A stretch of 64,000 nucleotides of DNA. Source: an uncultured Chlamydiales bacterium. GTDB lineage: Bacteria; Chlamydiota; Chlamydiia; Chlamydiales; Rhabdochlamydiaceae. The notes beneath the pieces are model-generated. The model did no database searches. It saw only the letters and a list, made by a program, of their open reading frames with translations, and was not told the DNA's origin. The stretch's first letter is position 1; every line of letters begins with the position of its first letter. This document shows positions 39,853-43,880 of the stretch, one piece after another. Location: NCBI GenBank assembly GCA_963700985.1, contig OY969554.1:256001-320000 (forward strand), given 5' to 3'. The translations under genes were made by a program, and so were the position numbers.

Positions 39853-39961
39853 AAAGGAAGTATGAATTATCAAGGATGAAGGATGAAAAGAAGAAAGAAA
39901 GATTTGCCTGCCTCTTTTCTTTTTCTTCTTTTCATCCTTCCGAATTCATACTTCATCCTTT
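39853..39961. repeat. GGATGAA-unit palindromic element (family C)
   Basis: AAGGAAGTATGAATT...AAGGATGAAGGATGAAAAGAAGAAAG pairs with CTTCTTTTTCATCCTTCCGAATTCATACTTCATCCTTT. Confidence 0.8.
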
Positions 39962-40012
39962 CTTTCAAATTCTGTCTGTTGTACACTTATTCAAGTAATT
40001 TATTTTTTTAAT

Positions 40013-40086
40013 GGGGTATTAGCTCAGTTGGTTAGAGCGCCACGTTGACATCGTGGAGGTCAGCTGTTCGAGTCAGCTATATCCCA
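40013..40086 (+). tRNA. tRNA-Val(GAC)
   Basis: Acceptor stem GGGGTAT/ATATCCC, anticodon arm CCACG-TTGACAT-CGTGG, T arm AGCTG-TTCGAGT-CAGCT; CCA not encoded. Confidence 0.96.
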
Positions 40087-40099
40087 ACCCCGCCATATC

Positions 40100-41650
40100 A
40101 TGGAGACATTAAACTGTTCAGTAGAAGAGCTTCGGCAGATAGCATCTAAAGTGCTGGCTGCAGCTGTTCTTGAATTATTTCCTGAAACACTCATCGTCTC
40201 CTCTCATCTTACCTCTCAAGGTTTTTGTTGTGATTTTGTTTTCCCATTTCAATTTACCACTGAGCTGCTTAGCTTAGTTGAAGATCGCATGGGGCAGATT
40301 TTACGCGACAAACGCGAGGCTAGGGTTTTTGAAATGGTGCCCGTTTCGGCGGCTGCCTTTTTTGAACACCATGGCCAGCCTCTTCTTGCTGAAAAGGTGA
40401 GGAATCAGGGCGAGCCCCTTCTCACACTTTGCCAAATTGGCGAGTATGTCGACTTCTGCCCCAATGAACTCTCATTTGAACATAGCAATGAGATCAGAGC
40501 TTTAAAGCTTCTGACAGTCTCTCAGAAGCAGCGATATATGGGATATTCGGTCACACAAATCGGCGGTACAGCTTTTTTTGAAAAAGATGAACTCAAAGAG
40601 TTTTTAAAACGCCGTGAAGAATTTCCTCAAAAAGATCATCTACTTTTAGGCGCAGAACTCGAACTTTTCTCTTTAATCGAGGAGCGCTGCGTTTGGCATA
40701 AGCGAGGCGAAAAGCTCAGGCAGCTACTCGTCGAACGTTGGAAAGAGGAGCTGCTTCAGCAAAATTTTGAATCTATTTTGACCCGTGAGCTTGGCACAGA
40801 TCTCACCGCTAACCACAGCAAATATTTTCTTCTCAGACAAAAAAGTCATGCCCGATTTGTGGAATTTTCCAATGAGATGCCACCCCGTCGTGAAGAGTGG
40901 CAGCGGGGCTTGCTGACTCCAGAGCATCCAACTTGTGATCTAGCGCACGTCTTTTGCACTTCGGACGACCTTTTCAATATATGTATTTCTTCCTTGCAAA
41001 TCATCTGGAAGATGCTTAAAATTCTCGATTTTAAGTTTCGAGTTGTCATCTGCTTATCTCGTGGTACGCATAAACGCGAGCGAGATGCTAATCGTCTTCT
41101 TGAAGAAGCTCTACGTGTGCAAGGCATGCCTTATACTGTAGAAGAGCGCTCTCGAAGATACTCGGGTCCCACTGTAGAAGTGCGGATCCAAGATGGCATG
41201 GGGCAAGAATGGGCAGGTCCGTTTGTCGGCGTCGATTGCCGCCAACTCGTTCAAGAAGAGATTGTTGTTTTCTCGCTGTTTAATTCACTAGAGCGCTGTA
41301 TAGCTCTCTTGCTTGAACAAGGCGATGGAGAACTTCCCTTGTGGCTTGCACCTGAACAGGTGAGAGTCGTCGGGGTAAAAGAGAATGAATACGCCACGGA
41401 GATCAGCCAGCTTCTTCACGAGGCAGGCATAAGATCGACGCTTGACATAAGAGGCGATAAGTTAGCAAAAAGGCTGCATGAAGCCTTGAGTAGAAAGATT
41501 CCATGGCTCGTGGTTGTAGGAGAACGCGAGAGAAAAGATCAGCTCATTACCGTGCGATCTTTTTCCTCATCCGAACCAGAAGAGATGAATGTGGAAAGTT
41601 TTATTCAGAGAATATTGACAACAGAGGTAAGCAGCGTTGAGAATCAATAG
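40100..41650 (+). CDS. Threonyl-tRNA synthetase-like protein with degenerate active sites
   Basis: ThrRS landmarks ([42 protein letters not shown]) in thrS position before infC; catalytic motifs lost. Confidence 0.85.
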
Positions 41651-42158
41651 AGAAATTCGCGCTCCAAAAGTGCGTGTAATCGACAAAGATGGCGGCCAGT
41701 TGGGCGTGCTTTCGCTTTTGGAAGCCCTCATGAAAGCCGAAGAGGCGGGGCTCGATCTAGTTGAAATTTCTGCCTCGGCTGACCCTCCGGTTTGTAAGAT
41801 TATTGACTATGGTAAGCTGCGTTATCAGCAAACTAAGAAAGAGAAAGAGAGCAAAAAATCTCAGCACCAAGTCAAAGTTAAAGAAGTTAAGTTGAAGCCA
41901 AATACAGATGAACATGATGTTGGAGTAAAACTCAAACACGCCAGAGAGTTCATTGTAAAAGGCAACAAGGTGCGCCTCACTTGTGTCTTCCGCGGAAGAG
42001 AGATGATGCACCCTGAATTTGGTCAAAAAATTGTACACCGTATGTGTGAAGAGCTTTCAGACATCGCAACTCCTGAAGCTCCACCAAAGATGATGGGACG
42101 CAGCCTGTCTGTGGTTTTAGCACCTGGTGCGAAAAAGAAAGCAGCGAACACTGGTTGA
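41637..42158 (+). CDS. infC: Translation initiation factor IF-3
   Basis: [24 protein letters not shown] and FRGRE motifs; TTG start. Confidence 0.97.
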
Positions 42159-42183
42159 TAGAGTTTATTAAGGAGAGCAAACC

Positions 42184-42378
42184 GTGCCAAAGATGAAAAG
42201 CCGTAAGGCGTTTAAATCAAGATTCAAAGTCACTGGAACTGGCAAACTTTTACGTCAGCGTCCAGGACGCCGTCACAAATTGACGAAGAAATCAGCGAAG
42301 CGCAAGAGACATCTGAGAAAAGATGCTGTTGTGAGTGCAGGACAGACAAAAATGTACCGCCGCCTGATTAGTGTATAA
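42184..42378 (+). CDS. rpmI: 50S ribosomal protein L35
   Basis: MPKMKS...RFKVTGTGK; lies between infC and rplT; GTG start. Confidence 0.96.
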
Positions 42379-42401
42379 AAATTTAAAAGAGGAATGTTTC
42401 T

Positions 42402-42758
42402 ATGGCTAGAGTAACCAACGCCGTAGCTGCCCACAAAGCAAGAAAAAGACTGCTTAAGAGCGCTAAAGGATTTGTCGGAGATCGTAAAAATCACATTAGA
42501 CTTTCAGCAGATGCTGTATTGTCTGCAATGGCTTTCAACTACCTGCACCGTAAGCAGAAGAAGAGAGACTTCCGTAAACTTTGGATCATGCGCATTGGCG
42601 TAGGTGCAAAAATTAACGGCATCTCTTACAGTAAGCTAATCGGTGGTTTGAAATTAGCTGGTTGTGCTTTAGATCGAAAAATGCTTTCTGAGATGGCAAT
42701 CAAAGATCCAGAGAGTTTTGCTACTGTGGCAGCGCAAGCTAAAGCAGCACTCGCATAA
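42402..42758 (+). CDS. rplT: 50S ribosomal protein L20
   Basis: MARV...RKQKKRDFRKLWIMRI...DRKMLSEMA. Confidence 0.97.
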   Translation: MARVTNAVAAHKARKRLLKSAKGFVGDRKNHIRLSADAVLSAMAFNYLHRKQKKRDFRKLWIMRIGVGAKINGISYSKLIGGLKLAGCALDRKMLSEMAIKDPESFATVAAQAKAALA

Positions 42759-42770
42759 TATCATCTATTC

Positions 42771-42794
42771 AAGCGGCTTCTAGAAGCCGCTTTT
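42771..42794 (+). terminator. Putative intrinsic terminator after rplT
   Basis: Palindrome AAGCGGCTTCTAGAAGCCGCTT followed by Ts. Confidence 0.7.
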
Positions 42795-42827
42795 GCAATT
42801 TCTAATTAGAATCATGTAAGGTGTCTA

Positions 42828-43880
42828 ATGCACAAAGACGAGGCCGCTAGTTCAAAGACAGTCTCTGTCAAGCTATCGTCTCTTCGTCATGCCTTTCAGG
42901 CCGATCTGAATGGCGTTAAAGAGAGCAAAGATGTCGAACAGCTCAAAGTCAAATATCTGGGTAAAAAAGGCCCAATCCAAGAACTCCTCTTAGAACTGCG
43001 CAATTTTTCCAAAGAAGAGCGCCCAATCGCGGGCAAACTCATCAATGAAATCAAAGAAGAATTCGAAGCTCTTTGCAATCAAGCGGCGGCAGGCTTGCAT
43101 GAGATTCATCTCAAAGAGCGCCTTGAGCGCGAGAAAATCGATATTTCCCAGCCTGGGCGCCGTCAATTTTTAGGCCGCAAGCATCCTCTCACTTTGATGA
43201 TGGATGAACTGATTGAGATCTTTCAAGGTATGGGTTTTTCTGTGCAGATCGGCCCCGAGATCGATTCAGATTACTATAACTTCGAAGGCTTGAATTTTCC
43301 TAAGGATCACCCTGCGCGCGATATGCAGGATACGTTTTACATCACGCCAGATCTTCTGCTGCGTACACATACCAGCAACTCTCAATTACGCGTCATGGAA
43401 AGCCATGCGCCACCGTTGCGCATCATCTGTCCTGGCACTGTTTACCGCAAAGAGAACATCAGCGCTCGCTCGCATGTCTTCTTCCATCAGATTGAAGGTC
43501 TGTATGTAGACAAGGACGTTTCTTTTGCTGATCTTTTTGCCACCATGAACGAATTTTGCAATAAGCTGTTCAAAAAACATATTCCCACACGTTTTCGCCC
43601 TAGCTTTTTTCCTTTCGTCGAGCCCGGCTTAGAACTCGATATCCAGTGCACCTCTTGCGAGGGAAAAGGCTGCCGTCTCTGTAAGCAAACGGGTTGGCTT
43701 GAAGTTCTGGGTGCTGGCATGGTCCATCCGGAAGTGCTGCGCAATGGGGGAATCGATCCAGAAATCTACTCTGGCTTTGCTTGGGGAATGGGCATCGAGC
43801 GCCTCACCATGCTACGCTACGGCATCAAAGATATCCGTCAGTTTTTCGATAATGATATGCGCTTCCTTGCGCAATTCTAA
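42828..43880 (+). CDS. pheS: Phenylalanine--tRNA ligase alpha subunit
   Basis: HPARDMQDTFY, LLRTHTS, FHQIEG, FPFVEP and GMGIERL motifs. Confidence 0.97.
   Translation: MHKDEAASSKTVSVKLSSLRHAFQADLNGVKESKDVEQLKVKYLGKKGPIQELLLELRNFSKEERPIAGKLINEIKEEFEALCNQAAAGLHEIHLKERLEREKIDISQPGRRQFLGRKHPLTLMMDELIEIFQGMGFSVQIGPEIDSDYYNFEGLNFPKDHPARDMQDTFYITPDLLLRTHTSNSQLRVMESHAPPLRIICPGTVYRKENISARSHVFFHQIEGLYVDKDVSFADLFATMNEFCNKLFKKHIPTRFRPSFFPFVEPGLELDIQCTSCEGKGCRLCKQTGWLEVLGAGMVHPEVLRNGGIDPEIYSGFAWGMGIERLTMLRYGIKDIRQFFDNDMRFLAQF

Follow-up and report, generated by a model that had tools for sequence, protein, structure and literature searches.

The window, a 64,000-nt stretch of DNA from an uncultured Chlamydiales bacterium (Rhabdochlamydiaceae; GenBank assembly GCA_963700985.1, contig OY969554.1, positions 256,001 to 320,000 of the forward strand), contains at 40100..41650 (+) a 516-aa open reading frame (ORF) with an ATG start and zero internal stops, which occupies the thrS position of the thrS-infC-rpmI-rplT-pheS cluster. 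The encoded protein, P0001, is a homologue of threonyl-tRNA synthetase (ThrRS), and the gene is here called the pseudo-ThrRS gene. Coordinates are window positions unless a genome or locus is named; the source genome is designated G000 and its complete ThrRS P0002. An earlier note, made from the letters of the window alone, had described the gene as an intact but catalytically eroded ThrRS paralog.

The uninterrupted ORF which that note placed 13 nt past tRNA-Val and overlapping infC was confirmed: the gap between tRNA-Val(GAC) and the ATG is 10 nt by the ARAGORN boundaries or 13 nt by those of Rfam, and the overlap with infC, encoding initiation factor 3 (IF3), is 14 nt. An AGAGG Shine-Dalgarno-like site precedes the infC TTG at 41637 and lies within the 3′ end of the upstream ORF. 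The transcript of the pseudo-ThrRS gene probably begins with the tRNA-Val, and the overlap together with the AGAGG site suggests that infC is translationally coupled to the pseudo-ThrRS ORF. In an Rfam scan of this locus and of the real thrS locus, only the tRNA scored above threshold, and a promoter/terminator scan of 39800-42900 returned 5 promoter-like sites versus 3.7 expected. Among indexed sequencing runs, 39900-42200 was matched by six DNA runs, one of them covering more than half of its words, and by no RNA run.

Active site, domains and fold of the protein

P0001 and P0002 are 22% identical (BLASTP 1e-30) and homologous over the whole length; a 516-codon open frame with full-length ThrRS homology is no chance feature. 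Active-site residues were read from an alignment of 97 real ThrRS (21 chlamydial, 76 from other phyla) and 64 relatives of the window ORF, with catalytic columns defined as the 12 active-site columns conserved at ≥95% in the 97 real ThrRS; the roles of the columns are those we assume from E. coli ThrRS structures. P0001 keeps 1 of the 12. In what we take to be the zinc triad (Cys/His/His), C327 of P0002 is T in P0001, H378 is kept as H283, and H503, the His before motif 3, is V390. In motif 2, R356 and E358 are replaced by P261 and R263, and the second Arg, R368, by T273. D376, the Asp matching E. coli D383, is L281, and Y454, K457, Q471, T474 and Q476 are all altered; the Asp, Tyr, Lys and Gln of the active site presumably bind threonine. 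Two deletions of ~17 residues remove the loop carrying the Zn Cys and the motif 2 loop. The deletion of the KPMNCP segment with its Cys, the altered motif 2 and the missing motif 3 His, all read by the earlier note from the translation, therefore stand in the alignment. Its two editing-site replacements, QIASK for HxxxH and DFCPNEL for DxCRGPH, were likewise recovered in alignments to the genome's own complete ThrRS, as Q13...K17 and D118-F-C-P-N-E-L124, where L124 replaces the His and D118 and C120 are kept.

The same losses are seen in the 64 family members first collected, among which the Zn Cys is retained in 1, the His before motif 3 in 2, the motif 2 Arg in 4, the Asp matching E. coli D383 in 0, and the editing His residues in 4 and 6. 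Against NCBIfam thrS (TIGR00418, EC 6.1.1.3), P0001 scored 189.9 bits, below the equivalog cut-off of 383.65. Measured as a ThrRS, it thus has the fold and the anticodon-binding domain, and falls short in score, motif 2, zinc site and editing site. NF011500, the model of the free-standing Ser-tRNA(Thr) hydrolase (ThrRS-ed), gave 53 bits versus a cut-off of 362 and matched the anticodon-binding domain only. The hisS model matched only residues 397-496, with 35 bits, and the best family was thrS. As judged from these residues, neither a functional ThrRS nor an editing enzyme is a plausible reading of the protein.

The scaffold that the note expected to remain was found. The motif 3 Glu-Arg pair is kept (E398, R399), motif 1 and the core start (W199, G203) stay conserved, and the only Pfam match in P0001 is the HGTP anticodon-binding domain (PF03129, E 5.7e-17). 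An AlphaFold2 model built from a 48-sequence family alignment (mean predicted local distance difference test score, pLDDT, 91.6; predicted template modelling score, pTM, 0.86) contains the class II beta-sheet, the N2-like domain and the anticodon-binding domain. The best Foldseek matches were ThrRS, namely 1qf6_A (E. coli; TMq 0.72) and 1nyq_A (S. aureus; TMq 0.75), with E values of ~1e-40 and 1e-36, so that the structure model for which the note had called shows a ThrRS fold.

Family-specific residues were taken from 205 family sequences compared with 98 real ThrRS. The helix motif at 296-304 is conserved at 71-97% at each position in the 205 and, except for L299, at ≤35% in the 98 real ThrRS; as a regular expression it matches 105 of 142 new cluster representatives from the profile search described below. 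Further family-specific residues are M79 (99%), H90 (81%) and A97 (87%) in the N2-like domain, the linker-helix lysines K166 (94%) and K170 (96%), and E360, S392, A402 and L403. P0001 carries the family signature of M79, K166, K170, I296-S-S-L-Q300, K304 and A402 combined with loss of the catalytic set. The anticodon-binding domain has no family-specific residue and stays canonical: P0001 has 8 of 9 columns invariant in real ThrRS, including E477 and R486. In the 64-sequence set, 51 members have the R486 column and 50 of them keep the Arg, and across the 205 family sequences E477 is conserved at 97% and R486 at 95%.

Features at the pseudo-ThrRS locus (window positions; residue numbers are those of P0001)
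Feature	Coordinates	Strand	Remarks
304-aa ORF	38168-39082	-	adjoins methylase gene
Putative rRNA methylase gene	39256..39873	-	PF06962, E 7.2e-39; divergent upstream neighbour, syntenic in many relatives
Inverted repeat	39853-39965		long, imperfect
tRNA-Val (anticodon GAC)	40012..40089	+	ARAGORN; Rfam tRNA 66.8 bits at 40013-40086
Pseudo-ThrRS gene	40100..41650	+	516 aa, no TGS domain; predicted catalytically dead ThrRS homologue
N2 (editing-domain-like) part, residues 1-175	40100..40624	+	editing His lost; family-specific M79, H90, A97
Linker helix (K166, K170) and class II core remnant, residues 176-410	40625..41329	+	two deletions, 1/12 catalytic residues
Family-specific helix motif I-S-S-L-Q-x-I-x-K, residues 296-304	40985..41011	+	variable place in real ThrRS
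Anticodon-binding domain, residues 411-516	41330..41647	+	HGTP_anticodon at residues 420-506
infC (IF3)	41637..42158	+	TTG start, 14 nt inside the pseudo-ThrRS ORF 3′ end
rpmI, rplT, pheS	42184..43880	+	remainder of the conserved cluster

Distribution, selection and origin

G000 (2.07 Mb, one contig) contains a complete thrS elsewhere, as the earlier note had expected. The gene, at G000:C1:1542149-1543801, has a 640-aa ORF scoring 655.1 bits, above the TIGR00418 cut-off, and lies ~1.25 Mb from the pseudo-ThrRS gene; every relative genome examined also has a complete thrS elsewhere (599-665 aa). The best explanation of these sequences is that the second, complete thrS charges tRNAThr. A tRNAThr-like operator upstream of the real thrS received no support from single-sequence folding (z = -0.92).

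Among 40 related genomes, 32 have a single intact ORF directly upstream of infC-rpmI-rplT-pheS, of 336-610 aa and 20-63% identical to P0001. Four of the intact ORFs are weak matches of 42-54 bits (G025, G033, G038, G040); the one in G040 was confirmed by profile comparison (hhalign 99%) and is the most reduced relative, with the N2-like part alone still detectable. In G037, a 0.8-Mb genome, a 528-aa, extremely diverged copy overlaps infC (L145 1439-3025), has no Pfam match and was found only by profile comparison, at 98.5% probability. The frame is broken in 3 of the 40: a single TAG interrupts it in G034, G016 shows two ORFs where a contig ends, and the copy in G003 has 12 stops. The G003 copy was considered as a pseudogene and rejected, as infC, rplT and pheS are fragmented in the same assembly; the frame breaks there (L013, C2:1124214-1128491) are typical of uncorrected long-read errors, and decay calls in it are unreliable. 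Three genomes lack the gene (G009, G026, G028), with tRNA-Val directly preceding infC, and two were left unscored (G011, no infC match; G036, outside the examination). In a broader sample of 121 genomes, copies in larger-genome families were long forms.

In all 20 scanned loci with a ThrRS-like gene, a tRNA-Val(GAC) immediately precedes that gene on the same strand, and in all loci carrying a ThrRS-like gene infC follows it directly. The arrangement in the genomes lacking the gene suggests that the tRNA-Val-infC linkage outlives the intervening gene and that the promoter of the tRNA drives infC-rpmI-rplT. In the gene-less loci L142 (G009), L143 (G028) and L144 (G026), the tRNA-Val(GAC) lies 50-245 nt upstream of infC on the same strand. 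The infC ORFs of these three genomes share the TTG start.

A family profile was searched against 1.84 billion cluster representatives (50%-identity clusters) and gave at least 150 matches at 445-655 bits; on this profile P0001 scored 675 bits and chlamydial real ThrRS 312-364 bits. Of the 142 new matches listed, 141 have no more than 5 of the 12 catalytic residues left and 138 no more than 3, the sole exception to the former being a normal 642-aa ThrRS. The nearest ESM Atlas cluster, named "hypothetical protein", has 127 members, mostly Chlamydiota, and relatives are annotated variously as hypothetical protein, tRNA-ligase C-terminal-domain protein or threonine--tRNA ligase. Even in the longest proteins of the family (579-610 aa), in which Pfam tRNA-synt_2b is recognised, neither the editing His nor the Zn Cys is present, and the Arg/Glu of motif 2 and the His preceding motif 3 are missing too; because these proteins already lack such residues, the catalytic loss is old and trimming in some lineages came later. 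The family is old, with syntenic orthologues in most chlamydial families sampled.

Rates of nonsynonymous (dN) and synonymous (dS) substitution were compared within the genus, where dS is large or saturated throughout. For the closest pair, G004-G005, dN was 0.244 and dS 1.35, giving dN/dS 0.18 (YN00 0.25; bootstrap 95% 0.13-0.23); by domain, dN/dS was 0.13 in the N2-like part, about 0.19-0.20 in the core and 0.22 in the anticodon-binding domain, with upper limits of ≤0.42. For G000-G001, dN was 0.280 and dS 2.19, giving dN/dS 0.13 (bootstrap 95% 0.08-0.18). In the latter pair, dN of the rRNA methylase gene was 0.302, of the 304-aa neighbour 0.293, of infC 0.093 and of rplT 0.139, and that of the real thrS was 0.093, the pseudo-ThrRS value being ~3 times higher. 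With an overall range in the genus of 0.13-0.25, indicating purifying selection, the pseudo-ThrRS gene shows the same constraint as the ordinary genes of these genomes, and for this genus neutral decay can be ruled out; the note's expectation that the gene is kept and not decaying was thus borne out.

The origin of the gene was examined with 80 loci from other genomes, drawn by pattern-driven sampling, the pattern being common with real ThrRS. A ThrRS match was immediately followed by infC in 55 of the 80; four of the 80 (L062, L063, L064, L109) are chlamydial family members and the others carry real ThrRS genes. ThrRS of Verrucomicrobiota, Lentisphaerota and Kiritimatiellota have no TGS domain, are 573-614 aa long and start where the pseudo family starts, and in these other phyla of the Planctomycetota-Verrucomicrobiota-Chlamydiota (PVC) group the real TGS-less thrS sits before infC. 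In a 68-row tree, the pseudo family formed one long-branched split (Shimodaira-Hasegawa-like approximate likelihood ratio, SH-aLRT, 100) with an unsettled attachment point. The complete, TGS-bearing chlamydial ThrRS (L001, relatives L026-L045) grouped with four Bacillota and one Brocadiia (SH-aLRT 99) and stood apart from the TGS-less PVC clade. In approximately unbiased (AU) tests, joining the pseudo family to the chlamydial real ThrRS cost 33.9 log-likelihood units (p-AU 0.071) and joining it to the TGS-less PVC clade, a constraint group named after the tree was seen, cost 10.6 (p-AU 0.237); neither was rejected. The infC-linked copy is probably the resident, positionally ancestral thrS, functionally replaced, rather than a newly made paralog; this reading follows from gene position and TGS-less architecture, and the tree does not prove it. 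Of the earlier description as an eroded paralog at the thrS locus, the catalytic loss and the locus hold, erosion specific to this lineage does not, given the age of the family, and a new paralog is less likely than a resident thrS, a point that the tree cannot settle. The working chlamydial thrS may have been acquired horizontally, a lead drawn from a biased sample.

Two features upstream were noted in passing. The 304-aa ORF beside the methylase gene has no significant Pfam family, is syntenic in several relatives and is 52-63% identical within the genus. The inverted repeat has 44-nt arms that are 82% complementary and 25 nt apart, and fills the divergent gap from the rRNA methylase gene start to tRNA-Val; it gave weak microRNA-precursor-like Rfam matches, and a terminator, a promoter element and a mobile remnant are candidates.

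Possible roles of the protein

In the reading we prefer, the ORF product would be a pseudo-synthetase descended from the thrS found upstream of infC in other PVC phyla, with aminoacylation and editing chemistry lost and the gene kept by selection for a non-catalytic role. The gene would be transcribed with tRNA-Val and coupled in translation to infC, and its product, probably dimeric, would bind RNA. The anticodon-binding domain would read an anticodon loop of the G35-U36 type (tRNAThr-like), in tRNAThr or in an mRNA mimic, in a manner likened to E. coli ThrRS on its own operator, minus the catalysis. A selected, non-catalytic and probably RNA-binding role is one to which we give evenly balanced confidence, on the conservation described above. 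The available part of PMC4756836 describes MST1 residues that read G35 and U36 and states that E. coli ThrRS does so "in a similar manner"; through the 1qf6 alignment, E477 and R486 of P0001 match these G35/U36-reading positions.

An unlikely but more specific extension is that chlamydiae have split the jobs of ThrRS, such that a complete thrS, possibly from outside PVC, charges tRNAThr and the original thrS has become a catalysis-free reader of tRNAThr-type anticodon loops that regulates translation. Its targets would be, for example, the supply of ThrRS, IF3, L35 or L20, or the handling of tRNAThr. If this were true, the protein would do as a free-standing factor what E. coli ThrRS does as a moonlighting activity when it binds its operator, and its family would be the first bacterial pseudo-synthetases derived from ThrRS.

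Several observations weigh against such RNA reading. The E. coli residues that read loop positions 32-34, 37 and 38, as given in the available part of PMC4756836, are not kept: N575 is G452, R583 is H460, R589 is K466 and D549 is deleted. The conservation of E477 and R486 may be structural, as is common in this domain class. Four residues conserved in the family are changed in this genus (R153Q, P201K, P229R, R369Q). About 10% of family members are without the anticodon-binding domain, and therefore a family-wide role cannot depend on it. In family f20 (1.0-1.3 Mb genomes), none was found near infC in 5 of 5 genomes checked, and this together with the clean losses in G009, G026 and G028 means that the gene is dispensable in some lineages. 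No conserved leader was found upstream of the real thrS, where the consensus fold of five genomes came to -2.06 kcal/mol and the sequences could not be aligned.

The missing anticodon-binding domains count in favour of a fairly unlikely alternative modelled on HisZ. Here the dead core and the N2-like domain would bind another protein, for example by pairing with the real ThrRS as a heterodimer or by entering a complex with a different enzyme, and the anticodon-binding domain would play an accessory part; all family members share the N2-like domain and the core. In addition, the amphipathic family-specific helix 296-304, G402A and L403 look like a remodelled surface, and the conserved motif 1 and core start belong to the region that forms the dimer interface in class II synthetases. 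HisZ itself is a precedent, as are the heteromers of duplicated Anabaena ThrRS in the available part of PMC4787780. However, comparison of the relatives' loci showed no linked candidate partner gene besides the ancestral infC cluster, and, in contrast to HisZ, a canonical anticodon-binding domain is retained by ~90% of members and is under selection. A single complex prediction for real ThrRS residues 236-640 with pseudo-ThrRS residues 176-516 gave an ipSAE of 0.02, a value that speaks neither for nor against such a complex.

That the gene is a functionless relic, its frame held open since ribosomes traverse it to reach infC or since a misfolding-prone, highly expressed product is selected against, is improbable. 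The tightly conserved position between tRNA-Val and infC, the overlap of the G000 ORF with the infC start, the fast evolution with lengths of 336-610 aa and repeated domain loss, and the clean losses in several lineages, after which tRNA-Val stands directly before infC, are as this explanation would have them. Coupling, however, keeps a frame and not amino acids, and would not give the observed pattern, because dN/dS is 0.13-0.25 in every domain and dN resembles that of ordinary neighbouring genes. Family-specific residues are also conserved at 80-99% across 205 sequences, the AlphaFold model is highly confident, and, although dead DNA tends to be purged from small intracellular genomes, 32 of the 40 relatives, one of them with a genome of 0.8 Mb, still carry the gene. 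It is highly improbable that the protein is still an enzyme, either a second, divergent ThrRS (zinc-independent, for example) or a ligase with a new substrate. The kept motif 3 Glu-Arg, one Zn-ligand His and overall fold, and the annotation of relatives as threonine--tRNA ligase by some sources, would fit an enzyme, but the motif 2 Arg, essential for adenylate formation in class II synthetases, is absent along with the motif 2 loop, only one of the 12 active-site residues survives, no new conserved polar cluster stands in for the other 11, and the score is below the thrS cut-off.

On the preferred reading of a selected, non-catalytic protein, the gene is a ThrRS-derived pseudo-enzyme with a full three-domain body, kept across most of an obligate intracellular phylum. 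Small genomes of obligate intracellular bacteria rarely keep useless genes, and synthetase-derived pseudo-enzymes such as HisZ are rare and instructive. If the reading is right, chlamydial translation control would gain a testable candidate for a new regulatory or RNA-binding protein, and the annotations of the protein's relatives would be corrected. The natural series from 610-aa forms through 340-aa remnants to clean losses would illustrate how an essential enzyme is replaced and repurposed. A literature search, which left supplementary files outside its scope, found no description of a chlamydial ThrRS-like pseudo-enzyme, and the available parts of PMC9437257 and PMC5388404 make no mention of one.

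Comparison with known synthetases and synthetase-derived proteins

Bacterial ThrRS (1qf6, 1nyq) have the same N2, class II core and anticodon-binding fold as pseudo-ThrRS and the same position upstream of infC-rpmI-rplT-pheS, and motif 3 and the anticodon-binding invariants are common to both. In contrast to them, pseudo-ThrRS is without TGS, 11 of 12 active-site residues and the editing His, has two loop deletions and falls below the TIGR00418 cut-off; these sequence features bar its classification as a ThrRS. The TGS-less ThrRS of other PVC phyla share its start, its lack of TGS and its place before infC, but they are among the 97 real ThrRS and keep all catalytic residues.

HisZ is the HisRS-like regulatory subunit of ATP phosphoribosyltransferase, has no aminoacylation activity or anticodon-binding domain, and acts with the partner HisG. 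It is likewise a class II synthetase homologue without catalytic residues, kept for a non-catalytic role; the ancestor of pseudo-ThrRS, however, was a ThrRS and not a HisRS, and its anticodon-binding domain is usually kept. In the accessory subunit of mitochondrial DNA polymerase gamma (Pol gamma B), the class II synthetase fold has been reused without catalysis. SLIMP is among the synthetase-derived proteins listed in the available part of PMC9437257. Both have a class II fold without catalysis, as in pseudo-ThrRS, but are eukaryotic, have other ancestors (SerRS for SLIMP, GlyRS/ProRS-like for the polymerase subunit) and have known partners or roles.

Second ThrRS-type genes are known as T1/T2 in Anabaena and as ThrRS-L in eukaryotes; the available part of PMC9437257 describes both as active synthetases and lists, for ThrRS, only the active duplicates T2 and ThrRS-L. 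The chlamydial protein is likewise the product of a second ThrRS-type gene and, as predicted from its residues, differs from these in not being an active synthetase.

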